Below, piece by piece: positions 4,354 through 19,519 of a stretch of DNA of 32,000 nt. Position 1 is the first letter of the stretch. Each line of letters begins with the position of its first letter. This DNA is from Providencia sp. R33. Its GTDB lineage: Bacteria; Pseudomonadota; Gammaproteobacteria; Enterobacterales; Enterobacteriaceae. The translations under genes and the position numbers were made by a program. The notes beneath the pieces were generated by a model. It did no database searches, was not told the origin of the DNA, and saw only the letters and a list, made by a program, of their open reading frames with translations. The stretch covers positions 1,411,223 to 1,443,222 of the forward strand of contig NZ_CP072453.1 of NCBI RefSeq assembly GCF_019343475.1, read 5' to 3'.

Positions 4354-5103
4354 TTAAAGTTGTTTATGAATGGTTAAGCCAGCGAATGTTTGGCAAACTG
4401 GCATTAACTCAAGCGTATTAACGTTCATATGGGCTGGAAGTGTTGCAACCCAAAAGACGGTTTCTGCGATATCTTCAGGGGTCAGAGCTTCCGCACCTTT
4501 ATAGGTATTTGAAGCTTTATCGCCATCACCTTTAAAACGCACATTAGAGAATTCTGTTCCGCCAACTAAACCAGGTTCAATATCAGTAACTCTGATTTTT
4601 TTACCTTGTAAATCAGCACGTAAACCTAAAGAAAATTGTTTAACAAAGGCTTTAGTCGCACCGTACACATTTCCACCTTTGTATGGCCAGCTTGCCGCTG
4701 TCGAGCCAATGTTAATGATATGACCATGGTCTTTTGCCACCATACCTTGTAGCACTTCATAAGTCATATTGACCAATCCTTTGGTGTTGGTATCAATCAT
4801 AACTTCCCAATCATCAGGATTTGCATCAAAAGCGGGCTCCAAGCCTAATGCCAGCCCCGCATTATTAACGAGAACATCAATATTTTTCAAAGAAGAAGGT
4901 AAATTAGCAACAGCGGCTTGAATCGCTTTTCTATCTTGAACATCTAATGTCAGTGGGTGAAAGTTATCACCTAATTCTTGTTGCAGTGCGACTAAGCGCG
5001 CTGTTCTGCGCCCAGTGCCAATAACGGTGTGACCTTGCTGAATAAATTTACGCGCGATAGACTCACCAAAGCCTGATGATGCACCTGTCACTAATATAAT
5101 CAT
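4354..5103 (-). CDS. ydfG: NADP-dependent 3-hydroxy acid dehydrogenase (short-chain dehydrogenase)
   Basis: 249 aa. It has the Rossmann motif VTGASSGFG, the NNAG motif and a YGATK catalytic Tyr/Lys. Length and synteny agree with YdfG. Confidence 0.85.
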   Translation of the reverse strand: MIILVTGASSGFGESIARKFIQQGHTVIGTGRRTARLVALQQELGDNFHPLTLDVQDRKAIQAAVANLPSSLKNIDVLVNNAGLALGLEPAFDANPDDWEVMIDTNTKGLVNMTYEVLQGMVAKDHGHIINIGSTAASWPYKGGNVYGATKAFVKQFSLGLRADLQGKKIRVTDIEPGLVGGTEFSNVRFKGDGDKASNTYKGAEALTPEDIAETVFWVATLPAHMNVNTLELMPVCQTFAGLTIHKQL

Positions 5104-5177
5104 GGGGACCTCTAAGTTGTTATAGTTGTATTGCGTAAATTTATTCTAACGCCTTCGAAAGGGAACTACAAAAGTTA

Positions 5178-6806
5178 CTATTCAAGGCCTAAAATATGCT
5201 TATCTTTTGGGTAGCTCAACGTATAATTAAACGGAATTTCAATCTGTTGATTGGGCTCTAATGCCACTTCCCAGGTTAATTCTCCTGTTGTTTTATTCAC
5301 TACCGCCTGTTTATTATCTATTTCAGATACCTTGATTTCACTGTCTTGGCTAACTGGTAATTGGTCAATAATCGTCAGATTAATTGGCTTCGCATGCATA
5401 TTTTTGGCTTTAATTAAATAGCCTTCTTTTTGCTCGATAGTCGAACCAATAAAACTTGGTTTTTTCTTCATTTTTTCATTACTTTCACGAGAAATCTGAA
5501 TGTTTTTATCGATGCCAAAAGGAATGAATAGGGTATCGCTTAGTTGATTGGTATTAATTTGGAAATTACCAATATAGGTATTTCCATAATAAATATTGGC
5601 ATTACCATTGAGTAAATTCAGTGCCTGCCAATTATCGATATCCGCTTGTAAGAAGACGTCTTCAGCCAATTTTGGTGTCGCCGTGTATTGGTATTTCCCT
5701 GTAACATCTGTTTGTTTGATGGTTAACGAATTAGGTTTCGTACTGCTTTTTAGGCTATAAGGTAATGAAATATCATAGTTTAAATTGATACCATTGTTTG
5801 AAGCAGTGACAAAATCGGCAATGCCTGAGCTATCCCGCTGTTTTTTTTCACGCATACTGCTTTCTGCCATTGCAACGGGGGCAGGAGCCTGTCGCATTAA
5901 GGCTTGGGATTCATACTGCACGCTGTCATCGTAAACCGATAATCGCCACGGTTGCAGGTTAAACGGTGTAATATTTTTAGACGGATTAACCGAGGATAAG
6001 GTTAAATTGACGTCTTTCCAATCAATCCCTGTATTTTGCACAATATTAGCTTTGTAGGTCAGAACAATAGGGGATTCAGCATCTTGGCTACGAAAATCAT
6101 AACTTGGGGACCATGCAGCATCAGGCGTAAGGTAAGAAAGCTGTATGTGTGCTGTGGTCTCATTTTTAGCATCTATGACCATAACGACTTGGGTTTGCTG
6201 ACCGACGACAGCGGGTGTATTTTCGTCAATCTGCGCTTGTAATAAGGCATTTTTTTCTTCAAGTGCATCAATTGAGGTTTGGTTTTGCTGCTGTTCTTGC
6301 AGTATTTGCGTCATTTGTTGGCGGATAAAACTCAATTTCTGCGATGATTGCTCAATAGTTTGGCTGTTACTTTCACCAAAAAAACGCTGATCTTTCAATA
6401 ACGATAATTGTTCTTCACCCACTTTAATTGCAATATTCAAGTTTTCAATTTGTTGGTTATTCTGTTTCTGTTGTTCTTGAAGGGCAGTTATTTCAGGGGA
6501 ATAAATAGGGGGAATAGCAACTTTTTGGACATTGATTGAGCGAATAATAACATCATCGTTTTTCAGGCTAACTGACAATGTGCGCGGGTCAATATTTGCT
6601 GCAATATTGGTTAATACGATGTCATTTTGGCCTTGTTTAAGTGACAGCGTCACATTATTATCTAACTCCGCCCCGCGTAAAAATATCGTCGCATGGTTTA
6701 GTTTAACACTTTGATTTAAATTACTTTCTGTTTGAGCAAGCGCATGGTTAGCTGCAAGAAGTGATGTCAAAAGTAAGCCACTTGCAATACGAATGGAAAC
6801 CGTCAT
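5178..6806 (-). CDS. Secreted DUF4139/DUF4140-type protein (MuiA-like family), function unknown
   Basis: A long clean ORF of 542 aa. It has a signal peptide (MTVSIRIASGLLLTSLLAANHALA) and a central Q-rich coiled coil. The family assignment is from memory of this architecture only. Confidence 0.7.
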   Translation of the reverse strand: MTVSIRIASGLLLTSLLAANHALAQTESNLNQSVKLNHATIFLRGAELDNNVTLSLKQGQNDIVLTNIAANIDPRTLSVSLKNDDVIIRSINVQKVAIPPIYSPEITALQEQQKQNNQQIENLNIAIKVGEEQLSLLKDQRFFGESNSQTIEQSSQKLSFIRQQMTQILQEQQQNQTSIDALEEKNALLQAQIDENTPAVVGQQTQVVMVIDAKNETTAHIQLSYLTPDAAWSPSYDFRSQDAESPIVLTYKANIVQNTGIDWKDVNLTLSSVNPSKNITPFNLQPWRLSVYDDSVQYESQALMRQAPAPVAMAESSMREKKQRDSSGIADFVTASNNGINLNYDISLPYSLKSSTKPNSLTIKQTDVTGKYQYTATPKLAEDVFLQADIDNWQALNLLNGNANIYYGNTYIGNFQINTNQLSDTLFIPFGIDKNIQISRESNEKMKKKPSFIGSTIEQKEGYLIKAKNMHAKPINLTIIDQLPVSQDSEIKVSEIDNKQAVVNKTTGELTWEVALEPNQQIEIPFNYTLSYPKDKHILGLE

Positions 6807-7035
6807 AGTAAAACTCCAAATATAAAGGTCAAAATTAGATAAATGGGCGATTTACTCATCATATTTTATCCGCTTGCCACTTGATAACAGATAAAGCCTA
6901 AAATATAGATACCCCTATTTGTCAAAAAATGTAATTCAGTGATAAAACCGAGAGAAAGTAAGAGGGGAAATACTTCAATTTCGCAGATAAAAGGCCATGA
7001 AATATTATATGGCCATTGCCTATCTAATAAAAAAA

Positions 7036-7380
7036 CTAGTAGAAATGTCCGGTTATTGACCAACCTAAATTAGGGTTCCCTAATGCAATTAGCGTCATGC
7101 CTGCGGGAAGTATAAATTCACTCGATGATGTTTCTATAAGAGTATGCACTTTTGATGAGTCTGATGACTCATTAATAACATGAATAATGGAGCCACTAAT
7201 GGGATCAAGTGTGCTAGCATTCGGTAAATAAATGTTAGGGGAAAAATTATCTTTAGTTAATTCTATATAAATAAAGTAATTACCTTTTTCGTACTCAGAT
7301 TCAAATTGAGATATCGTAATATCCTTACCATTTTCAAACTGTAACTTTACGAACCACTTTTGCATATCAGACATAAACAT
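7036..7380 (-). CDS. Hypothetical protein
   Basis: 114-aa ORF. GAGGAG lies directly upstream, so the real start may be the third codon ATG at 7374. I recognise no family. Confidence 0.4.
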   Translation of the reverse strand: MFMSDMQKWFVKLQFENGKDITISQFESEYEKGNYFIYIELTKDNFSPNIYLPNASTLDPISGSIIHVINESSDSSKVHTLIETSSSEFILPAGMTLIALGNPNLGWSITGHFY

Positions 7381-7623
7381 CTCCTCTTTTTCGTATGGAC
7401 AAAATAAAAATCATTAAAATGATAATAGTTAAATTTTCTCCATACGTTTTAACAATTTATATCTAGTCTTAATGAATAATAATGTGCTATCAAAACTAGC
7501 CCATCATTTTTATGTTTTAAATTATTAAAATTAAAATGATATCGACTTTTCTTTGTTGTTTGCCTAATGTAAATAAGGTCTAATATGATGGAGCACTCTC
7601 CCTGCAACTATTAAAAGGTTAAA

Positions 7624-7935
7624 ATGAAAATATTTAACAGCGCTAGTTTTACAGCTTCAAAAGCGTGGGAAGCTCAAGATATTGCTAATTTTGATGGCAC
7701 AACTGTCCGTTTACATTGGACTGATAAACCTTATAAATGGCACATCAATGATGGACAAGAAGTTTTCGCTGTCATGGATGGTTCAGTAGAAATGTACTAC
7801 AAAGAGAATAATGAAGTTAAAAAAGTCATCCTAAATACAGGTGATATTTTTTATGCTGGCATTGGCTGTGAGCATGTTGCACACCCGATTGGTACCGCAC
7901 GAATTTTAGTTGTCGAAAAAGAAGGTTCAGTGTGA
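7624..7935 (+). CDS. Cupin-domain protein
   Basis: 103 aa. It shows a small beta-barrel pattern with H..D.E...(V)..G and G..H.. motifs (HWTDKPYKWHINDGQEVFAVMDG ... GCEHVAHP). An AAAGG RBS lies upstream. Confidence 0.65.
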   Translation: MKIFNSASFTASKAWEAQDIANFDGTTVRLHWTDKPYKWHINDGQEVFAVMDGSVEMYYKENNEVKKVILNTGDIFYAGIGCEHVAHPIGTARILVVEKEGSV

Positions 7936-8107
7936 CAATCATTCCATTATCTAACGCTTTTTAAATAAAATGGCATAAACAACTGAATTGCCTGTATGAG
8001 GCTAATATCAGCATATCTGCGGCATCGTGTTTAGTTTGTGCCACTCCTCATGTAAGATATGGCTAACAATAAGATACGGACGTACAGGTTAACTTCAGAG
8101 GTTTTTA

Positions 8108-8353
8108 ATGGCTCACTATATACCATTTAAATATTATGACATGGTGGAAGAATATTCACTGGAATCAGCGTTTCCAGTCACTGAAGAGGAATTCGACCCT
8201 CTGGCTCACTATTTTCAGTTATTGCTTACCCGTTTGGCCGATAACGAAGAAATTAGTGAAGAGATGCAAAAAGAAATGGCAAAAGAGGCCGGTATCAATA
8301 AGAAATATATTGATGATATAGCTGAATTTTTGAATAGCTGGGGTAATGACTAA
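8108..8353 (+). CDS. Small acidic hypothetical protein (possibly DUF2543/YmjA-like; not certain)
   Basis: 81-aa ORF with a GAGG RBS 8 nt upstream. It is followed by a hairpin terminator. The family guess is from memory only. Confidence 0.55.
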
Positions 8354-8425
8354 AAAGACGGAGCAGGGAAGTATCATACCATTTAATCGGAGTTCTTTGA
8401 CGCTATTCAAAGAGGGAAACGTTGA

Positions 8426-8455
8426 GATAAAACACCCGCCAGTAGGTGTTTTATC
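8426..8455. terminator. Hairpin terminator between convergent genes
   Basis: Stem gataaaacacc (8426-8436) pairs with ggtgttttatc (8445-8455), 11 bp perfect, with an 8-nt loop. Confidence 0.55.
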
Positions 8456-8473
8456 TTGTCAGGCGGATGTGAC

Positions 8474-9595
8474 TTATTCTTCGAAATACCAATATCCCTG
8501 ATTGATAAACTCGGTTAATTCCACAATAAAATCATGGTTTTTCAGTGCTTCACCGAGTTCATTCTTTCCAACTTCTGTAAACTGGCATAATGTATCTGCG
8601 CCTTTCACTTCTGTAGTAATCCAGCTTTCTGTATTAACGAAGAAATAATCTCCGGTACGCATGACTCGTAATCCGTTCAGCCGTATTAGTTTTTCACCTG
8701 CATTCAGCGCGCCCAATACTTCTTCAGGCTGATACGGTGGTTCTGGAGGAGCAATATCCAGTTCATGGCGTGGGGTGGTTGCAAAACGACCTAACCACTG
8801 CTCAAAATCCCCGGGTTTATTGATCATTTCAATCATCATGGCGCGCAGACGTTCAACCTCATAAGTCTCCATAGTTCCTGCATTTTCGCGCACTTTCAGA
8901 TCGGGGTCGCCATAATTTACTCCCCCCAAATCCTGTTCAAGTGCGTAGTCTGCAAAACTACTCAGCAGGTCACGTCCAGTTGGTCCGCGAAAGCCAACAG
9001 AATAATTCATGGTATCTTCGAAAGTGAAACCATCATGAGGAAATCCGGGCGGAATATACAGAATATCTCCGGGAGCCATTTCCACGTCAATAATCGGTTC
9101 AAACGGGTCGACATGTAATAATGCTGGATGTGAGCAGAATTGACGCATCGGGAGGGCATCACCCACACGCCAGCGCCGACGTCCCATTCCTTGGATGATG
9201 AAAACATCATAGTTATCAATATGAGGCCCGACGCCACCTCCAGGTACCGAATAGGAGATCATCAAGTCATCAAGACGCCACTCAGGCAGCACACGGAATG
9301 GTTTCACCAGTTCAGCGGCAGGAACATGCCAATGGTTGACGGCCTGTACCAGCAATGACCATCCTTTTTCACCTAATTCGCTGTAATCCTCGAACGGGCC
9401 ATGACTCGCTTCCCATTTATTATCAATGAAGCTAACTAAGCGGCTGTCAACTTCCGACTCCATCGCCAAGCCGGCCAGTTCATCTGGCGTAATAGGGTCA
9501 GCAAAATCAGGAAATGCATTTTTCAATACAACGGGTTTTTTCTGCCAGTATTTTTCTAAAAATTCAGGCCAGTTAAGATTTAGTTTGTTAACCAT
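8474..9595 (-). CDS. roxA: Ribosomal protein uL16 arginine hydroxylase (JmjC/cupin oxygenase RoxA/YcfD)
   Basis: From the internal ATG at 9595, the sequence MVNKLNLNWPEFLEKYWQKKPVVLKNAF...DELAGLAMESEVDSRLVS...WSLLVQAVNHWH...DDLMISYSVPGGGVGPHIDNYDVFIIQGMGRRRWRVGD follows E. coli YcfD almost motif for motif. The ORF-track start at 9670 is a TTG extension. Confidence 0.85.
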   Translation of the reverse strand: MVNKLNLNWPEFLEKYWQKKPVVLKNAFPDFADPITPDELAGLAMESEVDSRLVSFIDNKWEASHGPFEDYSELGEKGWSLLVQAVNHWHVPAAELVKPFRVLPEWRLDDLMISYSVPGGGVGPHIDNYDVFIIQGMGRRRWRVGDALPMRQFCSHPALLHVDPFEPIIDVEMAPGDILYIPPGFPHDGFTFEDTMNYSVGFRGPTGRDLLSSFADYALEQDLGGVNYGDPDLKVRENAGTMETYEVERLRAMMIEMINKPGDFEQWLGRFATTPRHELDIAPPEPPYQPEEVLGALNAGEKLIRLNGLRVMRTGDYFFVNTESWITTEVKGADTLCQFTEVGKNELGEALKNHDFIVELTEFINQGYWYFEE

Positions 9596-9755
9596 GTGAC
9601 CACATCTATATGAGTAAATAAGCTGATAATTATAGAGGTAATGCACCGTCATATTTTTGTTTGGCGTCAAGTGCCAGTCAATAACTTTAGGGGAAGATAA
9701 ATGCGCATATCGAAGGTAATGAAATATTTATTAGATAAAACTAAGTCTAGAACCG

Positions 9756-9825
9756 AAAAAGAACCAACACAATTAACCAGCCAGAACGCTGGATTTCTTC
9801 ATTTTATACCTAGGTTCGCATAATG
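9756..9825 (+). repeat. 70-bp direct repeat, copy 1 of 3 (phage right-end sequence plus XerC arm)
   Basis: The sequence aaaaagaaccaacacaattaaccagccagaacgctggatttcttcattttatacctaggttcgcataatg is identical at 9756-9825, 19816-19885 and 29876-29945. Confidence 0.9.
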
Positions 9826-9840
9826 TATAACGCTATGTTA
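9813..9840 (+). other. attL: hybrid dif/attP site (XerC arm GGTTCGCATAA, centre TGTATA, degenerate XerD-side ACGCTATGTTA)
   Basis: The XerC arm and the first 2 central nt are identical to the intact dif at 29933. The sequence diverges from the third central nucleotide onward. Confidence 0.8.
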
Positions 9841-9904
9841 CAAAAGGGTTCTGAGTGATTGCGGTAGAATGGTTTTGGGGTTTACCGCAATCGGGAAGGT
9901 TCGT

Positions 9905-9933
9905 CTTTACACATAGCGTGCATTGTGCGAATC
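9905..9933 (-). other. Inverted second dif-like site (attP2-like)
   Basis: The minus strand reads GATTCGCACAA TGCACG CTATGTGTAAAG, versus dif GGTTCGCATAA TGCATA TTATGTTAAAT. The XerC arm matches 9/11, the centre 4/6 and the XerD arm 7/11. It base-pairs with 9811-9838. Confidence 0.65.
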
Positions 9934-9976
9934 TACTAGGCTAAAATCTGAGAAATCATTAAAGGGTTTTATTAAT

Positions 9977-10243
9977 TCATCTTTTGCCATCATTTAACTC
10001 TTTTTTATTAGATAATTCTATTACTGTATTAAAAAGATAATCATCTGCTACATCTAAAATAATGCCGATACCTTGATACTCGTCTTCATCACTACCTTTT
10101 AAGATTTCTCCTTCAGCCCCCTCAGTTTTCACAAACTCATAAATATCTTCAATTAAAAATGTAATTAATTCTGCTCTTGATTTTCTATTATTGTTTTTAT
10201 CATTAATTAACCATTTATTAATTTCTAATTTAATTTTATTCAT
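9977..10243 (-). CDS. Hypothetical small acidic cytoplasmic protein (cargo module gene 4)
   Basis: 88 aa. An AAGAGG RBS lies 5 nt upstream of the ATG. It is rich in E/D (GAEGEILKGSDEDEYQG, LDVADDY) and has no hydrophobic segment. I recognise no family. Confidence 0.65.
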   Translation of the reverse strand: MNKIKLEINKWLINDKNNNRKSRAELITFLIEDIYEFVKTEGAEGEILKGSDEDEYQGIGIILDVADDYLFNTVIELSNKKELNDGKR

Positions 10244-10273
10244 GTGACCTCTTATCTTTTCATCTTGTGTTAA

Positions 10274-11026
10274 TCAATCGCCTGCTACTATTTTAATTTC
10301 CCGCATTGGAATATTATTTAACTCAGTAATGTTAAATATATACGTATCATCTTCAAGCTCTTTGTCTTTATTGATTTTTTTAGCAATAAAATAATCATTA
10401 TACTTATTGACTATTACATATGTCATATTATTCTTTTCAATTGAATAAAATACTGATTTAGTTCTTGCACCATATTTACCCAGTGAAGTAATTATTAATG
10501 AAAATATAATTAAAATAAAAAGAATTGCTAACATATCGGTTGACAACCTTGTTTCTCTAACGCTGGATTTTCTATCTACCAACTCTTTTTCAATATTATT
10601 ATTGATGCTCTCAAAAATATTTTTCGATTTCTCTTTGAATGGGAAAGATACAATAACAACTAGCAATGCAAATATCCCTATAGAAATAGCTAAGTATTTA
10701 AAATTCACATTACCATTCAAAAATAAAATCATTAACATGATGATAAATAGGAAAAAATAAGAGAATAGGTTTTTTGCTATTTTACCTATAATACCCAATG
10801 GGTTTATTAAGCTTACAAGCATATCCATTATCCCTGTGATTATGAATATAAACATAAACAACCCAAAGCCCATCTGTAATAAGTTCATTATACTTATGGA
10901 AATAAGGTCTTTTGAATAATTAAAATGGTTTGCATAACCTAATTCAAAAAAATAAGCAGAGCAATAAGAAGCACTTGTTATTATAGCAAGAAGTAGTGTT
11001 TCTTTTTTTAAAATACATTTAATCAT
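10274..11026 (-). CDS. Hypothetical polytopic membrane protein (cargo module gene 3)
   Basis: 250 aa with about 5 long hydrophobic helices (LLLAIITSASYCSAYFF, FGLFMFIFIITGIMDMLVSL, LFSYFFLFIIMLMILFL, LAISIGIFALLVVIVSF, LAILFILIIFSLIITSL). A soluble C-terminus of about 60 aa follows. It is tightly packed with its neighbours. Confidence 0.7.
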   Translation of the reverse strand: MIKCILKKETLLLAIITSASYCSAYFFELGYANHFNYSKDLISISIMNLLQMGFGLFMFIFIITGIMDMLVSLINPLGIIGKIAKNLFSYFFLFIIMLMILFLNGNVNFKYLAISIGIFALLVVIVSFPFKEKSKNIFESINNNIEKELVDRKSSVRETRLSTDMLAILFILIIFSLIITSLGKYGARTKSVFYSIEKNNMTYVIVNKYNDYFIAKKINKDKELEDDTYIFNITELNNIPMREIKIVAGD

Positions 11027-11042
11027 AACATACTCATTTAGC

Positions 11043-11231
11043 TTACAATTTCCATCTTACTAGCGCACAGAAAGCAGTTGCAGCTCCTAAATATAACGTA
11101 TATTTCCATTCAATGGCGTTAACTTTAGATGTGAGTAAAAACATGGCGAACGTTAATACTCCTAAAATTATGGCGGCTTTACCTGCATAATAAGAAATCA
11201 TTGCATTCATATCATCATTAAAATTTGACAT
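11043..11231 (-). CDS. Hypothetical 62-aa two-helix membrane peptide (cargo module gene 2)
   Basis: A GAGG RBS lies 5 nt upstream of the ATG. There are two hydrophobic segments (AAIILGVLTFAMFLL and LYLGAATAFCALV). The stop is 16 nt before the next gene. Confidence 0.6.
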   Translation of the reverse strand: MSNFNDDMNAMISYYAGKAAIILGVLTFAMFLLTSKVNAIEWKYTLYLGAATAFCALVRWKL

Positions 11232-11244
11232 TATAACCTCAAAT

Positions 11245-11278
11245 GTTCGTCTTTACACATAGAGTGAATTTTGTGAAT
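11245..11278 (+). repeat. Degenerate second copy of the attP2-like arm
   Basis: gttcgtctttacacatagagtgaattttgtgaat matches 9899-9932 (gttcgtctttacacatagcgtgcattgtgcgaat) at 30/34 positions, in direct orientation. The first 18 nt are perfect. Confidence 0.8.
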
Positions 11279-11964
11279 TAATTATCTTCATTTTTAAGTG
11301 TCTTAACTTTAAAAATTACAGAGTCACTAGATACGATGTCAGGACTGCCATCCCACGTAATAGAGCCTTTATTTCTATATGTAAATAAGAGTTCTGTTGG
11401 AAATTCATTATCTGATTTAGCAGCCCATAATTCACGAAGATATTTAAGTTTAATCGGTGCATTAGCACTTATTAACGCCATTAAAACCAGTCTATCTTTT
11501 AACGTTGGAAGATTGTTACTATTAATTTTCGAATCAATAACATTGTTAATCGACAGCTCTAATTCTTTGATTTTTTCTTCATTACCATCAATTGCTTTTA
11601 TTTTATTGTCAACCAGTGAAATTATTTCATTTTTCAATGTTTCTTTGACTTTTTCTAATGTATTTTCATCATCATTTTCGTTAATTTCATTAGGTTTTTT
11701 CCAAATATGCTCTCTCATATCTGTCACTGTATCTTTCATCATAGAGAATGTATCCGAATATAACTTATCAAATAGCTTTTCTAATCTTTCAACGTTTGAT
11801 TGAATTTCACTTGCTGCCTTTGTTGTTTCTTTAGCAGCCTCGTTAGACATTTTAAAAAATACGATTGATAGCCAAATCGCACCAACAGCAAGCAGTAAGG
11901 AGGCTATGGATGCAATAAAACTAATAATTTCAAATATACTTTGCATAGTGTTTGTGGTTTCCAT
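11278..11964 (-). CDS. Hypothetical membrane-anchored coiled-coil protein (cargo module gene 1)
   Basis: An N-terminal TM helix (IFEIISFIASIASLLLAVGAIWLSIVFF) is followed by a long charged helical region and a C-terminal globular domain of about 80 aa. I placed the start at the ATG at 11964, whereas the ORF-track start at 11970 is GTG. No convincing RBS is present, so the start is uncertain. Confidence 0.6.
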   Translation of the reverse strand: METTNTMQSIFEIISFIASIASLLLAVGAIWLSIVFFKMSNEAAKETTKAASEIQSNVERLEKLFDKLYSDTFSMMKDTVTDMREHIWKKPNEINENDDENTLEKVKETLKNEIISLVDNKIKAIDGNEEKIKELELSINNVIDSKINSNNLPTLKDRLVLMALISANAPIKLKYLRELWAAKSDNEFPTELLFTYRNKGSITWDGSPDIVSSDSVIFKVKTLKNEDN

Positions 11965-11993
11965 TTTCACAAATGTTACAAGGAATATGAAAA

Positions 11994-12015
11994 CCCCCGT
12001 GCTGTACTACGGGGG
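11994..12015 (-). terminator. Rho-independent terminator after the 77-aa gene
   Basis: The minus strand reads cccccgt-agtacagc-acggggg followed by ttttc. It is a 7-bp GC-rich stem. Confidence 0.55.
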
Positions 12016-12087
12016 TAGTCTCAGGATAACTACAATATTTCAGGCAACTATCTAAAAACAAAACATATTATCATTTCTGTAATTATT

Positions 12088-12321
12088 TTATTTTTTTATG
12101 TCACTTTTGAAAAATAGCTCTCCATTTTCATTTACATCTACATCATGAATTTTGTTCTCTAAGACAAAGTGAACAATATCAGATTCTCTATACACCGCTT
12201 TAAGCCCATTCATAATATTTTTTCTTGTTAAATTATAAGAAATTTCTTTTAAATCAGCGGATTCTGTGTCTTTTAGCCTAACTGTTTTAATCAGTGGTTC
12301 TGTCATATTTTTTTCTCTCAT
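12088..12321 (-). CDS. Small protein divergent from rep; candidate phage repressor (positional analogue of CTXphi RstR), possible ribbon-helix-helix fold
   Basis: 77 aa, transcribed divergently from the replication operon across an operator-like repeat region. The pattern KTVRLKD + TESADLKEISYNL + TRKNIMNGLKAVY fits beta-alpha-alpha. The function is an inference only. Confidence 0.5.
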   Translation of the reverse strand: MREKNMTEPLIKTVRLKDTESADLKEISYNLTRKNIMNGLKAVYRESDIVHFVLENKIHDVDVNENGELFFKSDIKK

Positions 12322-12343
12322 TAGTTGCCTACTCAGATCCTAT

Positions 12344-12433
12344 AACATGTATACATATTTTCAATTACTAGTTGACATGTAATATGTAACAGGTATATCT
12401 TCAAATGAAATATAATTTGTAATATGTATACAT
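12344..12433. promoter_or_regulatory. Divergent control region with repeated operator-like motifs
   Basis: The 10-bp palindrome ATGTATACAT occurs at 12347-12356 and 12424-12433. TGTAATATGTA occurs at 12378-12388 and 12418-12428. TTGACA (12372-12377) is followed 16 bp later by TATATC (12394-12399), and a TATAAT lies at 12411-12416. Confidence 0.5.
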
Positions 12434-12633
12434 GGTATTTTATGAACATTGTCTATTTCGATTTTATAGAAGGGTATGGCATTAACGCTCAAGTCGGTAT
12501 TGAGTGGGATTTTTACCGTTCCTTTGAGGAATTGATTAAAGAGTGTTCAAACTGCTTTCACGATAATTTTATCTTAGCGCCAACCACGGCTATTTCAGGG
12601 AATTTCTTAGGTTACAGGGAGAGCTTGCTATGA
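12424..12633 (+). CDS. Hypothetical 69-aa ORF upstream of rep (coding status uncertain)
   Basis: Its stop overlaps the rep start (ATGA at 12630-12633), suggesting translational coupling. There is no clear RBS, and the start codon sits inside the operator-like palindrome. Confidence 0.3.
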   Translation: MYTWYFMNIVYFDFIEGYGINAQVGIEWDFYRSFEELIKECSNCFHDNFILAPTTAISGNFLGYRESLL

Positions 12634-13769
12634 GTAATCAATCAACTCGCTCTGTTTTTATTGACTATTTAGCTTTTTCCGCACCCATTTCAGTCATGAA
12701 AGATGTTCATACTTTTCAAGAAAAGGGTTTTGAATGGCGTAAATTTCAATATTTACCTTCTTATCGTCATTATCAAACTGAACCACGTTATGCATGTTTG
12801 CCTGAGTTTCAAGGGATCCCCGAGATCCCATCAAACACTATGACCGATGAGCAGTTAAATCAATATGATACTGACTTAATAGAATGCTATTTTTCTCGTT
12901 TAAAAACATGGATAGCTTCTGTTTTTGGCTTAGTTATGGGGCTGCCAAGGGGTAAGGGCGGTTTTGCATATAGTGATTCCGCACTGTTGTATAGTGACCA
13001 AGGTGGCTCAGATCATTGCGGTGTGATTTTTTGGGGAGGTAATAACGATACATTTTATGTTCAAATTTCAGGTTTAGGTTGTGCTCATGTATTTAGTGGA
13101 ACAACACCACAAAAAATTCATAAGTGGTTAAAACACCTTGATATTTTTACATTAAAACGTCTCGACTTAGCAACCGATGATTATGATGGGATTTTTACCT
13201 GTCAAGCGGCATTACGGGATTATCGTTTTGATGCGTTCTATGGTGGAGCAGGTCCCAAACCTAAACTCGATACATCAAATGGCATTGATGCCAATGGATG
13301 TGTGACAAAAGAAATCGTCAATATTGGTTCTCGTCAATCTCGTATTTACTGGCGTATTTACAATAAAGCATTGGAACAAAAGGTTTCGGGTATTTGGTAT
13401 CGTTCAGAGGTCGAGTTAAAAGGGCTTTCAATTGATACATTGCTAAATATCGCAGGAATTTATACTGGGCTATGTGATTATTCTGCTCAAATTAATCCGA
13501 CTGTACCAACTTCTATTCCACCGCTTTTTGTTCGTAAAGCCATTGATTCCATTGAAGCAAAAGTTCGATGGTTACGCAAACAGGCATCAGCAACGCTTGC
13601 TAAAGTTTTTCATTATCATGAAGGTGATATGTTAAAAGTTTTTTCTATGGTTCTTAGGGAAGAACACCTTGAAGATCTAAATGTACGTTTTGATATACCG
13701 CCTATATATCACACTTTATACCAAACTTTAATGAGCGAAAAATTAAAGCTTTCTCAAACACCTTTTTAA
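12630..13769 (+). CDS. Rolling-circle replication initiator, Rep_trans family (RstA-like; functional analogue of Ff gpII)
   Basis: 379 aa with a GGGAGAG RBS. It has Rep_trans-type motifs: FIDYLAFS, HCGVIFWGG..FYVQISGLGC, RLDLATDDYDG and RIYWRIYNK...YRSEVELKG. It is first in the plus-strand operon and shows no resemblance to M13 gpII. Confidence 0.8.
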   Translation: MSNQSTRSVFIDYLAFSAPISVMKDVHTFQEKGFEWRKFQYLPSYRHYQTEPRYACLPEFQGIPEIPSNTMTDEQLNQYDTDLIECYFSRLKTWIASVFGLVMGLPRGKGGFAYSDSALLYSDQGGSDHCGVIFWGGNNDTFYVQISGLGCAHVFSGTTPQKIHKWLKHLDIFTLKRLDLATDDYDGIFTCQAALRDYRFDAFYGGAGPKPKLDTSNGIDANGCVTKEIVNIGSRQSRIYWRIYNKALEQKVSGIWYRSEVELKGLSIDTLLNIAGIYTGLCDYSAQINPTVPTSIPPLFVRKAIDSIEAKVRWLRKQASATLAKVFHYHEGDMLKVFSMVLREEHLEDLNVRFDIPPIYHTLYQTLMSEKLKLSQTPF

Positions 13770-13791
13770 AAATAATTAGGATGAATTTATT

Positions 13792-14067
13792 ATGATTAAA
13801 ATTGAATTAAACGCTGAAGATTGTGCAGTTAAAACAAAAGAAGTCACTTCAACTCGTACAGGTGAAATTTTACATTTCCGTGAGCAAAAAGCCTATATTT
13901 ATAATGGCGGTATTTATCCCAAGCAATTCATGATTGGTCTGGAAAAAGATCAGGCTGCATATCCTGCGGGCTTTTATACATTATCTATAGATTCATATGA
14001 TGTGGGGGATTTTGGTGCATTAAAATTCTCTCGAAATATTAAATTAATCCCCATTGATAAAAAATAA
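13792..14067 (+). CDS. ssDNA-binding protein, homologue of Ff gene V protein
   Basis: 91 aa. MIKIEL... and QAAYPAGFYTLSIDSYDVGDFGALKF...IKLIP align with M13 g5p MIKVEI... and QPAYAPGLYTVHLSSFKVGQFGSLMI...LRLVP. Confidence 0.9.
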   Translation: MIKIELNAEDCAVKTKEVTSTRTGEILHFREQKAYIYNGGIYPKQFMIGLEKDQAAYPAGFYTLSIDSYDVGDFGALKFSRNIKLIPIDKK

Positions 14068-14094
14068 ATTTAATTAATTTTAATAGGAAAGGGC

Positions 14095-14211
14095 ATGTTT
14101 AATTTCGAACCGTCATTACTTTTTGAGTTAAGAGATTTTATTTATGTCGTTTCTGGTTTCATTGTTTTTTTATTGTCATTTATTGCTGGTCGCTTAACCG
14201 CTCCGAGGTAA
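14095..14211 (+). CDS. Minor coat protein, gVII-like (38 aa)
   Basis: Not in the ORF track because it is under 60 aa. An AGGAAAGGG RBS precedes MFNFEPSLLFELRDFIYVVSGFIVFLLSFIAGRLTAPR, a single hydrophobic helix. Position and size match Ff pVII. Confidence 0.6.
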   Translation: MFNFEPSLLFELRDFIYVVSGFIVFLLSFIAGRLTAPR

Positions 14212-14213
14212 TT

Positions 14214-14315
14214 ATGCTTGGATTAATTGCGTTATTTTCATCAATTGTTGCTTCAGGTTTTGCGGCTGGTTATCTCGTCGGTTTTTTTGACCGATTAACT
14301 CGTGAACTATCCTAG
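14214..14315 (+). CDS. Minor coat protein, gIX-like (33 aa)
   Basis: Not in the ORF track. It starts 2 nt after the previous stop and encodes MLGLIALFSSIVASGFAAGYLVGFFDRLTRELS. Position and size match Ff pIX (32 aa). Confidence 0.6.
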   Translation: MLGLIALFSSIVASGFAAGYLVGFFDRLTRELS

Positions 14316-14326
14316 AAAGGTGATTT

Positions 14327-14560
14327 ATGTTTAAAAAAACATTAGCAACAATCATTGTTGCTACCGCGTCCATCGCTTCTCCTGCTGTTTTTGCAGCTGA
14401 AACACCAACGTCAACAGTTCCGCAAGCTGCGCAAGATGCAATTACAGGAGTTGGCAGTACCGCAACGGGCATGATTGATTTGGCGTGGCCTGTTATCGCG
14501 CTTGTTGTCGGTGGTTTCTTAGCCATTAAGATGTTTAAAAAAGTGGCATCAAAAGTCTAA
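14327..14560 (+). CDS. Major coat protein (gVIII homologue)
   Basis: 77 aa. It has a signal peptide ending AVFA|AE, an acidic/neutral N-terminus, a hydrophobic core and a basic C-terminus (IKMFKKVASKV), compared with IKLFKKFTSKAS in M13. An AAAGGTGA RBS is present. Confidence 0.9.
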   Translation: MFKKTLATIIVATASIASPAVFAAETPTSTVPQAAQDAITGVGSTATGMIDLAWPVIALVVGGFLAIKMFKKVASKV

Positions 14561-14589
14561 CGCTATTGACTCAGCGTTATATCCTCTTT

Positions 14590-14612
14590 GGGGCTTCGTG
14601 CCCCATTTTTTT
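14590..14612 (+). terminator. Rho-independent terminator after gVIII
   Basis: ggggc-ttcgt-gcccc followed by attttttt. This is the same location as the strong terminator after gene VIII in Ff phages. Confidence 0.7.
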
Positions 14613-14632
14613 AAATAACAAGGTTTTCAATT

Positions 14633-16369
14633 ATGCGTTTTATTTTCTTTTTATTACTCGGTTTTAGTTTCTATTCTAATGCGGTAATTAAAACGTATAA
14701 TGTGACATTATCTGATACCAATTATAAAGTCTCTCAATATGACCCTAATACGGGTTTTTGGTCTTCATCATTTACTCTTGAATATCCGCTTCAAACTTAT
14801 CAAGCGAGTGATTGTTTTCTTGAACGTAGTTTTTCTATTGCTCCGAGAACGATTGCCGAAAAATATATTAAACTACCGAATAGAAACCCAAATGCATCTC
14901 CGCCATCATTATCGGTTAAATTTAATCCAAAGGTAAAATGTACAGTTGATTGGGTTGAGGATAAACCAAAATATTCATTAACCGATAAAGCCAATTCAGC
15001 GATATTAACGATAACTTATCGCGCTTTTTATTGCCCTAATGAATCTGCTTATTCTTACAATAATTTAGATAAAAAAGAAGGATGTCCCTCTATTGAGCAT
15101 GGTAGCTTGGAAGAATATTGTTTAAAACAACCCACGTTATATAACACTACAGTTAAAAACCCAACGCATGATGGTAAAGATTATATATTTAATAATGCAG
15201 AAAATGGCTGTAAATACTTTTCAGTTGGTTCCGTTATATTAAAACAAGAAAATCCACTTCGTATTACAAGTGATTGGGCAACAATTGGAGTCGCTGATTT
15301 AGATACTGGTGATAGCGAAATTATCGAAAATGATAATGGTAATGATGGTGGTAACGGCAGTGAAGGTGGTAACGGCAGTGAAGGTGGTAACGGCAGCGAA
15401 GGTGGTAACGGCAGCGAAGGTGGTAACGGCAGTGAAGGTGGTAACGGCAGTGAAGGTGGTAACGGCAGCGAAGGTGGTAACGGCAGCGAAGGTGGTAACG
15501 GCAGCGAAGGTGGTAACGGCAGCGAAGGTGGTAACGGCAGCGAAGGTGGTAACGGCAGCGAAGGTGGTAACGGCAGCGAAGGTGGTAACGGCAACGAAGG
15601 CGGTAATGGAGGCGGGAGTGCGTCAGGTGAATATGCCGGTATTTTAAACTCAATTCGTACAGATACACAAAGTATCAGTAAAACCACATCATCCATGGAT
15701 AAAAACCTGAATTCCATCAAAGATAAAGCATCATCGATAGACGATAGGCTCGCTAATATTGATGGAAACGTTGCAAAGATTGAGCGTTATTTACGCCCAG
15801 AAGAACACTCTTTTTCCGAATGGCTGAATTCTTTTGATACCACTTACAGCACCTATTTTAGCCCCTCGATTAAAGAGCCTAATTCAATATTTAATGCCGA
15901 ATTTGGGTATCGCAATGACAATGAGTTTTCACTGTATGGGGATATCGCCTCCAATATGCAAGGAGATGCGTTTGTCAGGTCATTTTCAAATATCTATCGA
16001 GAACAATTGTCAGGTTTAACTTCCCACTTACCAAGCAATTTACAACTGTCTTCGATTGCCAATCAATTAGACGGTTCGATTCGTTCTGATACGATTGATT
16101 TTAGAGACGATTTTAAAGCTTATGGGACATTTACCTCAATTTTTGGAGTGGGTGATTTAGTCAAATCCATTTATCAAGTTTTGCCCAAGTATAAAGAATG
16201 CACTCCGATTATCTTATTTGGTGGGTATCCTTATGAGTTTTCTATTTCTTGCGAATACATAAATAAAATCAAAGACTTTCTTTATTACGTCTTTTTCTTT
16301 TTTACATTGTGGTTCACGTTCACGAAATTAATGCATTCAATTTCAGCAACGCCCGCAAAAGAAAGTTAA
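14633..16369 (+). CDS. Adsorption/minor coat protein (gIII homologue)
   Basis: 578 aa. It has the signal peptide MRFIFFLLLGFSFYSNA, a Cys-containing N-terminal region and a long (GGNGSE)n linker. The C-terminus GYPYEFSISCEYINKIKDFLYYVFFFFTLWFTFTKLMH...KES resembles M13 g3p GKPYEFSIDCDKINLFRGVFAFLLYVATFMYVFSTFANILRNKES. Confidence 0.9.
   Translation: MRFIFFLLLGFSFYSNAVIKTYNVTLSDTNYKVSQYDPNTGFWSSSFTLEYPLQTYQASDCFLERSFSIAPRTIAEKYIKLPNRNPNASPPSLSVKFNPKVKCTVDWVEDKPKYSLTDKANSAILTITYRAFYCPNESAYSYNNLDKKEGCPSIEHGSLEEYCLKQPTLYNTTVKNPTHDGKDYIFNNAENGCKYFSVGSVILKQENPLRITSDWATIGVADLDTGDSEIIENDNGNDGGNGSEGGNGSEGGNGSEGGNGSEGGNGSEGGNGSEGGNGSEGGNGSEGGNGSEGGNGSEGGNGSEGGNGSEGGNGSEGGNGNEGGNGGGSASGEYAGILNSIRTDTQSISKTTSSMDKNLNSIKDKASSIDDRLANIDGNVAKIERYLRPEEHSFSEWLNSFDTTYSTYFSPSIKEPNSIFNAEFGYRNDNEFSLYGDIASNMQGDAFVRSFSNIYREQLSGLTSHLPSNLQLSSIANQLDGSIRSDTIDFRDDFKAYGTFTSIFGVGDLVKSIYQVLPKYKECTPIILFGGYPYEFSISCEYINKIKDFLYYVFFFFTLWFTFTKLMHSISATPAKES
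15347..15598 (+). repeat. 14 x 18-bp in-frame tandem repeat (ggtggtaacggcagYgaa) encoding the GGNGSE linker of pIII
   Basis: I counted units from 15347. There are thirteen GGNGSE units and then one GGNGNE unit. Units differ only at the synonymous agt/agc position. Confidence 0.9.
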
Positions 16370-16387
16370 TACCAAAAGGAGCGCATT

Positions 16388-16726
16388 ATGCCGTTATTAC
16401 TGGCTTGGTTACCTGCACTGATTACATGGTTGTTTAATGCATGGCGTATTTACGTTGCAGCTTCTTTTTTATGGAAAATCATTAAATATATTGCAGGTGT
16501 CATTATTACCTATGCTGTAGTGAACTATGTTTTTGGTGGATTTATCTCGGCACTCATTAATTGGGTCTCAACTTCATTAACGTATATTTCCCCGTTTATT
16601 GATGCCTTTTCGTTATTTTTACCCTCAAATTTTGAAACCTGCGTTTATATCATCATTTCAGATTACGTTCTTGCCATGGTTTTGTCATGGAAACATCGTA
16701 TTGCAACGGCATTAGGAGCGATTTAA
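16388..16726 (+). CDS. Minor coat protein (gVI homologue)
   Basis: 112 aa, the same length as M13 pVI, and hydrophobic. LFLPSNFETCVYIIIS aligns with M13 LILPSNALPCFYVILS. An AAGGAG RBS is present. Confidence 0.85.
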   Translation: MPLLLAWLPALITWLFNAWRIYVAASFLWKIIKYIAGVIITYAVVNYVFGGFISALINWVSTSLTYISPFIDAFSLFLPSNFETCVYIIISDYVLAMVLSWKHRIATALGAI

Positions 16727-16888
16727 GTGGATTTTACTGTGTGGGACGTTATGGCATTTGCGTTCTCAATGTTTCTTTTATCTTATATAAGGTGATGTTA
16801 TGTCTATCATCCCGTTTATACCGACACGCCTTGAATATTACTATGGTCATTTAACGCATTCATATGCTTATTCACTTTAGGAGGGGAA

Positions 16889-17920
16889 ATGGCGGTCTAT
16901 TTTGTCACGGGTAAACTCGGTTCAGGAAAAACACTCTCAGCCGTGTATAAAATCCGCGATTACTTAATGAATGGGCGTAAGGTGGCGACAAACTTAAATA
17001 TCTCGTTAACAGGGATGTTTGGTTATCACGCCAAAAATATTAATCTGGTACGTATTCCTGATAAACCCAATATCATTGATTTAGAGTCAATTGGGCGCGG
17101 TAATTCTACTTACGATGAGTCACTCAATGGCTTACTGGTCTTGGACGAATGCGGAACATGGTTTAACTCGCGTTCTTGGGCAGATAAGAGCCGACAGGAG
17201 TTAATCAATTGGTTTGCACATGCGCGAAAGCTCGGCTGGGATATTCTTTTCCTTGTGCAAAGTCTTCATGTTGTCGATAAACAGAGTCGATTGATGTTTG
17301 CGGAACACGTGGTGTATTGCCGTCGTGCTGACCGTTTAAAAATCCCCTATATTCATTGGTTATTGCAATTAGTGACATTAGGGCATTTTCAACTCCCGAA
17401 AATCCACATGGCTATCGTGAAATACGGGGATTCACCGACTGCATTAGTCACTGACCGTTGGTTTTACCAAGGTGGGCCTTTGTATTCCGCTTATGACACC
17501 AAACAGCAATTTTCTGATTTCTATGCGCATGGGGCATTTTGTGTTTTGCCTCCGCATTACTACGTCTTAAAACGCACAAAAATTAATGTGAGCTTTTTTA
17601 TGCGCTTAACAAAAATCTATTTCAAACGCTCTAAACGACTCAGCTTAATTCTTTTGGGAATATTCCTGTGCCTTTCAGGGCAATTTTTTTATCACAAGTA
17701 TTGGCCATCAACGTCAGAAACACCCATCTTGCCACTTTCTGACGTTTTTATTGATTCTTACGTGAAGCACGGTAATCAGACTCAATACCGATTTTCAACA
17801 CCAAATGGCATTTTATCTGAAGACGATTTAACAAATGCAGGCATAAAAATTTCGCAGGTATCGCCCTGTAAAGTGTCATTAAATTTAAATGGGGTTTCAC
17901 ATGAAGTCACATGTAAATAG
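16889..17920 (+). CDS. Assembly ATPase (gI homologue, Zot family)
   Basis: The N-terminus MAVYFVTGKLGSGKTL is identical to M13 pI, and LLVLDECGTWFNSRSW, HARKLGWDI.FLVQ and EHVVYCRR are conserved. It has a Walker A motif and a TM segment, and a GGAGGGG RBS. Confidence 0.92.
   Translation: MAVYFVTGKLGSGKTLSAVYKIRDYLMNGRKVATNLNISLTGMFGYHAKNINLVRIPDKPNIIDLESIGRGNSTYDESLNGLLVLDECGTWFNSRSWADKSRQELINWFAHARKLGWDILFLVQSLHVVDKQSRLMFAEHVVYCRRADRLKIPYIHWLLQLVTLGHFQLPKIHMAIVKYGDSPTALVTDRWFYQGGPLYSAYDTKQQFSDFYAHGAFCVLPPHYYVLKRTKINVSFFMRLTKIYFKRSKRLSLILLGIFLCLSGQFFYHKYWPSTSETPILPLSDVFIDSYVKHGNQTQYRFSTPNGILSEDDLTNAGIKISQVSPCKVSLNLNGVSHEVTCK
17600..17920 (+). CDS. In-frame internal product of gI (pXI-like)
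   Basis: The internal Met238 (MRLTKIYFKRSKRLSLILLGIF) aligns with the M13 pXI start MKLTKIYLKKFSRVLCLAIGF. Use of this start here is an inference. Confidence 0.45.
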   Translation: MRLTKIYFKRSKRLSLILLGIFLCLSGQFFYHKYWPSTSETPILPLSDVFIDSYVKHGNQTQYRFSTPNGILSEDDLTNAGIKISQVSPCKVSLNLNGVSHEVTCK

Positions 17921-19229: not shown

Positions 19230-19278
19230 TTTTTTATTACGTTACATTCTAATTATTTATCAATCTCTCTTTTAATCA

Positions 19279-19340
19279 GAACCCTGTTAGCGATGTTCGC
19301 TCACTGCGAGAGCGGGGGGCGGATATCGCTAATGGGGTTT
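19279..19340 (+). other. GC-rich imperfect hairpin in the post-gIV intergenic region (candidate packaging signal or minus-strand origin)
   Basis: ttagcgat (19287-19294) pairs with atcgctaa (19325-19332). An outer accc/ggggt extension and an inner cgctc/gagcg stem are also present. The location corresponds to the Ff intergenic region. Confidence 0.4.
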
Positions 19341-19455
19341 CTATTAACAGTCATTTTATTTATGAATATAGCTTTTGTGATTATATCAGAATAAAGTTTC
19401 TTTATATGCCGTTAGGCATGTAAGGCGACACGCTAAAATTTCAGAAATACCCAAA

Positions 19456-19488
19456 GCTCGCTCGCCGATAAAACGGGCGGGCTTTTTT
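19456..19488 (+). terminator. Terminator-like hairpin with T6 tract in the intergenic region
   Basis: gctcgctcgccg-ataaaa-cgggcgggc (imperfect stem) is followed by tttttt. Confidence 0.4.
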
Positions 19489-19519
19489 GAAAAACACGAA
19501 ACCGCGCTTGCGCCACTGG

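Follow-up and report, generated by a model that had tools for sequence, protein, structure and literature searches.

A probable CTX-type attachment site folded from inverted dif-like sequences in a tandem filamentous prophage of Providencia

Filamentous phages that integrate at dif

VGJphi-type and TLCphi-type phages, like the Providencia phage described here, integrate at dif using the host XerCD recombinases and do not require a phage integrase. Both types have a single duplex attP and integrate reversibly; the VGJphi site has a centre of 6-7 nt, and TLCphi needs the activation factor XafT and a XerD-first exchange (PMC4246890). The Providencia phage differs from both: its sites are two and inverted, the one at the junction has an over-long centre, and a search of its predicted proteins of at least 62 aa gave no XafT.

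The class criteria for CTX-type elements were taken from PMC4246890 and from a re-analysis of the CTXphi/RS1 array JN545745. In this array, attP1 lies on the rstA strand and has a 12-nt centre. AttP2 lies inverted ~85 nt downstream, has a 7-nt centre and is followed by rstR (minus strand) and rstA (plus strand). The fold of the plus strand has an energy of -42.0 kcal/mol, versus -36.4 kcal/mol for the minus strand.

The original prediction, made from the sequence alone, hinted that such a mechanism had not been described in the Enterobacterales. This does not hold, as YpfPhi of Yersinia pestis and CUS-1Phi of E. coli O18:K1:H7 are already regarded as CTX-type, with inverted XerC/XerD sites (PMC4266046, PMC4246890), and are listed as related members of the CTXphi class (Das 2014, Table 2, PMC4246890). 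The hairpin substrate of YpfPhi is itself only "proposed" (PMC4266046). YpfPhi, CUS-1Phi and the Providencia phage are all enterobacterial inoviruses that lie in tandem at dif and have a rebuilt dif at their 3' end. The gene content and cargo of YpfPhi are unlike those of the Providencia phage and the host genus differs, the comparison with YpfPhi and CUS-1Phi being by description only. A further group of tandem dif-integrated inoviruses of Enterobacterales, as the Providencia phage is, has been named UPphi and has hosts in E. coli, Salmonella, Klebsiella, Citrobacter and Y. enterocolitica (PMC7307601). The UPphi description mentions "a copy of the dif site"; an inverted second site, a hairpin and attP are absent from its text (PMC7307601).

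The tandem prophage of Providencia sp. R33

The window is the whole stretch of 32,000 nucleotides that was analysed (NZ_CP072453.1, positions 1,411,223 to 1,443,222 of the forward strand). A 10,060-bp periodicity is visible in its list of ORFs, and positions 9756-19885 equal 19816-29945 without a mismatch. The array has the following parts:

9750-9812, plus strand: relic of a phage right end forming the host dif-left flank (last ~8 codons and stop of o72, plus spacer)
9813-19872, plus strand: prophage copy 1, 10,060 bp (repeat map, Pfam, PHROGs)
19873-29932, plus strand: prophage copy 2, with 0 mismatches to copy 1
19871-19995, plus strand: phage-phage junction (attP proper), with site 1 at 19873-19903, the inner hairpin at 19916-19953 and site 2 at 19965-19993
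29933-29960, plus strand: rebuilt complete host dif, GGTTCGCATAA TGCATA TTATGTTAAAT

The dif at 29933-29960 has 2 mismatches from E. coli dif, and 0 of 100 shuffles match. It is identical to the dif of two contigs of the same species (L006 and L001), in both of which dif sits between the same flanking genes as here. In L006, dif stands alone between these genes (RoxA-dif-VF530) and is an empty site. Insertion of the phage at the Providencia dif site is confirmed by this same-species empty site. The flanking chromosomal genes of the window encode a LysR regulator, a ROK-family protein, an SDR protein, a RoxA-like oxygenase, VF530 and a hydrolase; exact protein look-ups of RoxA (398-aa ORF version) and of the phage protein o72 returned no record. 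Other exact protein matches are to Providencia (sp. R33, and also P. rettgeri and P. hangzhouensis).

The three junctions (9813, 19873 and 29933) have GGTTCGCATAATG in common and then diverge. Those at 9813 and 19873 both read GGTTCGCATAATG-TATAACGC; only the rightmost, at 29933, continues as dif. The 125 nt of 9811-9935 recur identically at 19871-19995. The structure of the junctions and the empty site together identify 9811-9935, which had been proposed as attP, as the attL copy at the left junction, and the identical phage-phage junction at 19871-19995 as the attP proper; the proposed structure stands and its label is changed. The latter copy would be the one carried by a rolling-circle replicon spanning both prophages. 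It folds with an energy of -26.2 kcal/mol on the plus strand versus -20.3 kcal/mol on the minus strand.

The genes of copy 1 are as follows:

9977-10243, 10274-11026, 11043-11231 and 11278-11970, minus strand: cargo ORFs
12088-12321, minus strand: putative regulator
12424-12633, plus strand: o69
12630-13769, plus strand: RstA-type Rep (Pfam Rep_trans)
13792-14067, plus strand: g5p, Ff-type ssDNA-binding protein (PF02303)
14327-14560, plus strand: g8p, coat protein (PF19199)
14633-16369, plus strand: g3p (PHROGs)
16388-16726, plus strand: g6p (PHROGs)
16889-17920, plus strand: pI/Zot
17889-19229, plus strand: pIV secretin
19618-19836, plus strand: o72

The virion and assembly genes (g5p, g8p, g3p, g6p, pI/Zot and pIV) are all on the plus strand, as had been noted from the sequence, and gene orientation by itself suggests that this strand would be the packaged one. 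The earlier description of the phage as Ff-like is correct for g5p, g8p, pI and pIV, but not for the replication protein. The latter is of the CTXphi RstA/Rep_trans type rather than gpII (34-36% identity to CTXphi and Vibrio RstA), which separates the phage from the Ff/M13-like class. The genome is a mosaic in which a CTX-type Rep is combined with Ff-type g5p and pIV. Pfam and PHROGs gave no match to an integrase or to DUF3653/XafT among the phage ORFs of at least 62 aa, four of which have no function assignment. Megablast of the prophage against deposited phages gave no match. The cargo ORFs and the small putative regulator, all on the minus strand, adjoin the hairpin; the cargo slot is variable, and relatives carry TIR, Hcp, TfpB-like and P63C genes there.

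The relic of the phage right end is identical at 19816-19872 and 29876-29932, and is also found in the empty site of L006 and in L001. Relatives whose hosts differ in dif neighbourhood also have this segment, as their conserved phage right end. The 57 bp to the left of site 1 were also considered as host DNA captured by the phage, a reading that was rejected because the o72 C-terminus and spacer are conserved in relatives. As the segment is kept by relatives at different dif neighbourhoods, the Providencia dif-left flank is a fossil of an earlier integration by a phage of the same kind.

The right end typical of these phages is faintly echoed in the native dif-left flank of E. coli (z = 4.35; controls -1.9 to +1.4), a likeness that is at most suggestive.

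The folded site in Providencia and in related phages

The flagged region contains two dif-like sites in opposite orientation and a hairpin between them:

9813-9843, plus strand: site 1 (attL copy), with XerC arm GGTTCGCATAA (9813-9823), 9-nt centre TGTATAACG (9824-9832) and XerD-like half-site CTATGTTACAA (9833-9843)
9856-9893, plus strand: inner hairpin, with an 11-bp stem (TGATTGCGGTA / TACCGCAATCG) and a 16-nt loop
9905-9933, minus strand: site 2, inverted, with XerC-like arm GATTCGCACAA, 6-nt centre TGCACG and XerD-like arm CTATGTGTAAA(G)

Read base by base, 9811-9825 pairs with 9921-9935 over 15 positions, 13 of them Watson-Crick and two G.T (9814.9932 and 9821.9925). The single G9920 faces the bulged TATA of the plus strand (9826-9829), and 9830-9838 (ACGCTATGT) forms a perfect XerD-side duplex with 9911-9919 (ACATAGCGT). 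The inner stem pairs GATTGCGGTA (9857-9866) perfectly with TACCGCAATC (9883-9892) and is extended by a T.G pair at 9856/9893. Apart from this added pair, the pairings are to the base those of the original prediction. Site 2, which supplies the bottom strand of the folded site, had been read as GATTCGCACAA TGCACG CTATGTGTAAAG at 9905-9933 on the minus strand. This reading is confirmed: the site is inverted, lies 64 nt from site 1 (9840 to 9905) and is identical to dif at 9 of 11 positions in one arm and 7 of 11 in the other. Site 1 had been read as GGTTCGCATAA TGTATA ACGCTATGTTA at 9813-9840. Its location is right, but the offset XerD-like half-site CTATGTTACAA gives a centre of 9 nt instead of 6 nt, which makes the element more CTX-like, not less.

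When 9800-9945 was folded as ssDNA, as had been suggested as a check, the proposed structure was obtained with an energy of -27.9 kcal/mol (shuffles: mean -12.1, sd 2.6; z = -6.0; 0 of 200 as good). The ssDNA fold of 9805-9941 has a z of -6.7. The minus strand folds well too (z = -5.1).

Folded with the same tool, attP1/attP2 of CTXphi and the Providencia site have the same architecture in the same order. Both phages have an inverted dif-like pair upstream of a minus-strand regulator and a plus-strand rstA-type rep gene. In both, the plus strand is favoured over the minus strand by ~6 kcal/mol, and its fold runs from the arm duplex through a bulge of the 5' strand to the XerD-side duplex and a fork. 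The centre of the plus-strand site is over-long (12 nt in CTXphi, 9 nt in the Providencia phage) and that of the inverted site shorter (7 nt versus 6 nt). Both phages also have the host arm at attL, form tandem arrays and leave dif rebuilt at the rep-distal end. The Providencia phage differs in its spacer (64 nt versus ~85-90 nt), its smaller bulge, a site 1 centre that is identical to the host dif at 5 of 6 positions and a distinct, covarying inner hairpin, unlike CTXphi. Its Rep is 34% identical to that of CTXphi and its morphogenesis module is Ff-like, with g5p and its own pIV secretin, whereas CTXphi relies on a host secretin.

The position of the crossover can be read from prophages in which the host and phage arms differ. 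In the UPphi-type prophage of E. coli 3-72, attL has the host arm GGTGCGC (GGTGCGCATAA) and attR has the phage arm GGTTCGC (GGTTCGCATAA); this swap places the exchange in the interval from arm position 4 to the centre, where XerC cleavage would put it. The CTXphi array likewise has AGTGCGCATTA at attL and AGTGCGTATTA at the junctions. In the UPphi-type tandem prophage of E. coli KE48, the host left flank is unrelated to the phage right end, and attL, junction and dif have their textbook form. The three junctions in the window and the arm swaps in 3-72 and CTXphi put the crossover where the XerC arm meets the centre, and the XerC cleavage point of site 1 would lie between 9823 and 9824.

The UPphi-type prophages of KE48 and 3-72 have the same hairpin module as the Providencia phage, 86.8% identical over exactly site 1 to site 2, and the UPphi copy of this cassette retains the Providencia-type arm in site 2. 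The backbone of UPphi resembles IKe/I2-2 and encodes a gpII/X replication protein, whereas the Rep of the Providencia phage belongs to a different family (RstA-type); relatedness between the two was detected for Zot (57% aa) and pIV (40% aa) only. As judged by these identities, the hairpin cassette is common to unrelated phage backbones.

Searches with exact proteins and with sequence patterns yielded twelve distinct attP sequences of the family. Among viral contigs, the 14-mer AAAAGGGTTCTGAG was found at 120 loci, mostly random, with 4 genuine; as this pattern was too unspecific, it was replaced by a 17-base gapped pattern. Loss of the inverted site from dif-integrating relatives, which had been named at the outset as evidence against a folded substrate, was not seen. 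Site 1 and the inverted site 2 are present in every examined relative with an identical or similar Rep, 12 of 12 close relatives having both. The inverted pair is also kept in three distant lineages (E. coli UPphi-type, E. coli E24377A and Photorhabdus).

Across the 12 aligned sequences, pairing holds in 95.1% of stem cells (versus 21-47% with partners slid by 1-3 columns) and the non-Watson-Crick stem positions on the plus strand comprise 20 G.T versus 2 A.C, counts that are not independent events since the sequences are closely related. The inner helix is 100% paired and has two G-C<->C-G compensatory columns, most of the covariation coming from few, closely related sequences. In one relative (L102), both arms have switched together to the E. 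coli-type GGTGCGCATAA. A G/A mismatch interrupts the XerD-side stem in half of the family. The plus strand folds better than the minus strand in all 12 sequences, by 2.1-5.9 kcal/mol. The excess of G.T over A.C likewise favours the plus strand and, with gene orientation, suggests that this is the packaged one.

E. coli E24377A has an RstA-type prophage at dif whose site folds with a z of -9.6 and has the bulge TGTTAC. Its XerD-side stem covaries (ACGTTATGT/ACATAACGT versus ACGCTATGT/ACATAGCGT in the Providencia phage). A Photorhabdus temperata prophage has the same architecture (z = -7.1), with plus and minus strands that fold equally. The inner-hairpin sequences of E24377A and Photorhabdus are unrelated to that of the Providencia phage and the architecture is kept; on this comparison, such distant lineages provide stronger evidence than the counts within the 12-sequence family.

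Mechanism of integration and its implications

The locus has the characters of a CTX-type element. The phage is integrated at dif, with a complete dif at one end, and its inverted dif-like sites lie less than ~100 nt apart, between the end of the cargo and the regulator/rep module. Neither of the sites is well suited as a duplex substrate, since the centre of site 1 is extended and site 2, with its 6-nt centre, has imperfect arms. In the plus-strand hairpin, the XerC arm and the XerD side are duplex and the centre is partly unpaired. Neither a recombinase nor a Xer activation factor was detected with Pfam and PHROGs among the phage ORFs of at least 62 aa. The prophage forms a tandem array and encodes an RstA-type rolling-circle initiator, and phage production from the array without excision is predicted. 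In the CTX class, the centre resembles dif beside the XerC cut and not on the XerD side; this character is not clear-cut in the present phage-host pair, since the site 1 centre (TGTATA) agrees with that of dif on the XerD side too, although TG(T) is all that relatives conserve. The folded region is thus probably the attachment site of a CTX-type IMEX, of which the plus strand would fold and be bound by XerCD, XerC would exchange strands with dif and replication would resolve the product. The CTXphi-type reading of the original prediction is supported, by comparison, through the fold, the junctions, the empty site, conservation, covariation and the CTXphi parallel; the same comparison suggests that integration would be single-stranded and require XerC only.

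The steps of integration are proposed to be these. By pairing site 1 with the inverted site 2, the packaged plus strand would form a dif-mimicking hairpin made up of a duplex XerC arm with TG, a 5'-strand bulge (TATA versus G), a 9-bp XerD-side duplex, a fork and the inner hairpin. Host XerCD would bind this hairpin, and XerC would cut both the site 1 strand and dif after GGTTCGCATAA, so that one pair of strands is exchanged. Bases beside the XerC cut must pair after exchange (PMC4246890). In the folded site, pairing beside the arm is limited to TG, and the centre of site 2 starts with TGCA, as does dif. The swapped ends could thus pair beside the cut, the host TGCA with the TGCA centre of site 2 and the phage TG with dif, and G9920 would be complementary to the C brought in by the host strand. 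The mismatched centre would prevent a XerD exchange, so that the junction would be resolved by replication. The expected product has the host arm and phage centre at the left, a complete dif at the right and an intact site 2 ~65 nt inside the left end, which is the structure seen in the window. As duplexes, site 1 (with its 9-nt centre) and site 2 (with its degenerate arms) are poor Xer substrates, and the prophage would therefore be locked in. Integration would presumably be irreversible, and the RstA-type Rep would produce new genomes by rolling-circle replication through the tandem junction (19871-19995).

A VGJ-type route, in which site 1 alone serves to recombine the duplex replicative form with dif, XerC acting first and replication resolving the junction, appears unlikely. 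Under this route the hairpin would be, for example, a minus-strand origin or a packaging signal, and filamentous-phage intergenic regions do generally hold functional hairpins. The prophage junctions look alike under either model and Rfam gives no known RNA family at the hairpin site. The XerC arm of site 1 is perfect, and the first six bases of its centre (TGTATA) are identical to those of the host dif (TGCATA) at 5 of 6 positions, the XerD side included. At the canonical 6-7-nt spacing, however, the XerD arm of duplex site 1 matches at 1 of 11 positions, with the XerD-like motif 9 nt out, and no single duplex attP with arms at this spacing is present. The pattern of conservation also argues against it. 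Site 2 is dif-like, with 6-nt spacing, and inverted in every relative, including those with unrelated inner hairpins, and a change of host dif type is accompanied by a change in both arms (L102). No such site would be needed in a hairpin for replication or packaging, and VGJ-type phages have a single dif-like site (PMC4246890).

Homologous recombination bears on how this particular array arose, and it would leave the conserved inverted dif-like pair unexplained. All three junctions have perfect identity over 57 bp to the left of the arm and 13 bp of arm and TG. In this host, these 70 bp (relic, arm and TG) could give the same array by RecA-dependent recombination and/or unequal crossing-over; the two copies are 100% identical, and homologous recombination has also been raised as a source of copy-number change in YpfPhi (PMC4266046). 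Such an origin is nevertheless distinctly improbable, as 70 bp is a short RecA substrate, and clean crossovers at the arm and centre are seen in E. coli where flank homology is lacking (KE48) or as a reciprocal arm swap (3-72).

TLC-type integration, with duplex site 1 recombined XerD-first under a phage-encoded Xer activation factor, is very improbable. Read with a 6-nt centre, site 1 does resemble the attP of TLCphi (PMC4246890), with 11 of 11 positions in the XerC arm, 5 of 6 in the centre and ~1 of 11 in the XerD arm, and several phage ORFs have no known function; no DUF3653/XafT-like protein was found among the phage ORFs tested. A XerD-first exchange needs homology on the XerD side of the centre, but relatives do not conserve it (TGTGTG, TGTGCC, TATATA, TGTGTT), and the conserved site 2 would again be left without explanation.

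A transcription terminator or other RNA-level element between the convergent o72 (plus strand) and 88-aa ORF (minus strand), with an incidental likeness to dif, was rejected as barely credible: convergent ORFs do flank the hairpin and its inner stem covaries, but no T-run follows the stem on either strand, and the outer stem is formed by the two dif-like sites, and one of these is itself the recombination junction. The only Rfam match, a weak one to a trypanosome snoRNA model at 14582-14606 (E = 0.057), was attributed to chance.

The CTX-type attachment site of the Providencia phage is thus best regarded as a well-supported new example of a mechanism already proposed for enterobacterial phages, and not as a new mechanism. 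The understanding of the mechanism is unchanged by it. Providencia, an opportunistic pathogen, is added to the hosts of CTX-type elements, and the covariation, strand bias and natural arm swaps are comparative evidence that was previously missing for enterobacterial phages. Modestly beyond the literature are the cassette in UPphi-type prophages, the Providencia-type arm in UPphi site 2 and the dif-left flank fossil. In the published description of the UPphi group only "a dif copy" is named, yet these phages have the inverted-pair cassette too. In practical terms, CTX-type prophages should be stable and non-excisable and should occur in arrays that short-read assemblies collapse or break at the repeated arm, and prophage boundaries can be called precisely from the pattern of arm, centre and inverted partner. 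As the cassette adjoins the variable cargo slot, it provides a route for accessory genes into the terminus region.

A broader possibility, somewhat less than an even prospect, is that site 1, the inner hairpin and site 2 form a portable cassette that moves between RstA-type (Providencia) and gpII, IKe-like UPphi (E. coli) backbones. Single-strand, XerC-only integration would then be the common lysogeny route of the inoviruses of Enterobacterales. Because integration would be irreversible, decay of such prophages would leave phage right ends fused to dif, and past integrations would survive as fossils in the dif-left flanks of their hosts (Providencia, and possibly also E. coli).

Relics of phage and array elements beside dif

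The sequence immediately left of dif in this Providencia species matches the right end of the resident inovirus, comprising the last codons of o72 (the last plus-strand phage ORF) and the spacer that follows. This right-end relic occurs at the following positions:

Window 9750-9812, dif-left flank
L006 1423-1485, dif-left flank of an empty site
L001 4593-4655, dif-left flank of a phage-free strain

The relic and the right end of the resident phage are 100% identical over 57 bp, and the relic is also found where dif is empty (L006) and in the strain that lacks the phage (L001). The dif-left flank of the species is a relic of the right end of this phage family. The native dif-left flank of E. 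coli (...AACCGCCAACGACTGGATT...; L209 2307-2391 in strain KE48, L208 10916-11000 in strain 3-72) bears a weak likeness to the same right end (...AACCAGCCAGAACGCTGGATT...; window 29848-29932), which falls at an equal offset from the XerC arm. Global alignment of the two gave z = 4.35 (3/1000 shuffles), compared with -1.9 to +1.4 for unrelated flanks. This likeness is only suggestive, and the E. coli flank may be another phage fossil.

Some arrays are heterologous. Two different inoviruses stand in tandem in L011 (1-3360 and 3361-14083), and the junction between them bears the arm of the first phage, AGTTCGCATAA. In Providencia sp. Me31A (L032 9447-11187), a remnant of ~1.7 kb left of dif retains both sites together with the opening 56 codons of Rep; in front of it lies a right end that belongs to a further type of phage and is shared with Photorhabdus. 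Locus L145 carries on its minus strand (~1225-1375, reverse-complement coordinates) a second, decayed module in which site 2 and the inner hairpin are kept and a recognisable site 1 is gone, probably a remnant of an older array element.

Several unit-length contigs (L013, L146, L154 and L157) have both of their ends within site 1 or within the XerC arm. The arm occurs three times over, and it is there that assemblies built from short reads break these arrays up or collapse them; copy number and junctions are therefore often lost in draft genomes.

A transposon-like island at dif

In L001 (GCA_028617055.1), an island of ~5.2 kb (4656-9838) lies flush with the XerC arm of dif; its right junction recurs in L002, L004 and L005. 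The island codes for an nSTAND3 NTPase (753 aa), an HTH transposase-like protein (466-495 aa) and a further protein of 367 aa. With ACCTA duplicated at both ends and subterminal inverted repeats (AATGTC/GGCTC), the L001 island looks like a transposon targeting the dif-adjacent position and not an IMEX.

Variable cargo and a shared integration module

Relatives with identical Rep proteins differ in their cargo on both sides of attP:

L011 13062-13538, L012 9660-10136, L013 10695-11171: T6SS Hcp-family protein, near the phage right end
L016 126-1034, L015 140-1084, L012 184-921: TIR-domain, P63C or TfpB-like proteins, minus-strand slot adjoining site 2

The cargo ORFs of the window phage encode 88, 250, 62 and 230 aa, none of known function. 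The region flanking attP is a hypervariable accessory region.

The hairpin module itself recurs in UPphi-type prophages (IKe-like, with a gpII Rep) of E. coli:

L209 10999-11123 and 2390-2514, E. coli KE48
L208 11001-11121, E. coli 3-72

L209 (NZ_CP141085.1 341214-363334) lies within a 385-kb KE48 record titled 'plasmid unnamed1'. On that record, tam-hipBA from the chromosomal terminus stand alongside dif and the UPphi tandem array; the replicon has probably been mis-labelled or mis-assembled.

The E. coli modules are 86.8% identical to that of the window, whereas the proteins of these prophages are at most 57% identical to those of the window phage. Their site 2 arm is of the Providencia type (GATTCGC) and not of the E. 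coli type. Because the module is so similar despite the divergence of the proteins, and carries a Providencia-type arm, these sequences suggest horizontal exchange of the integration cassette between phages.
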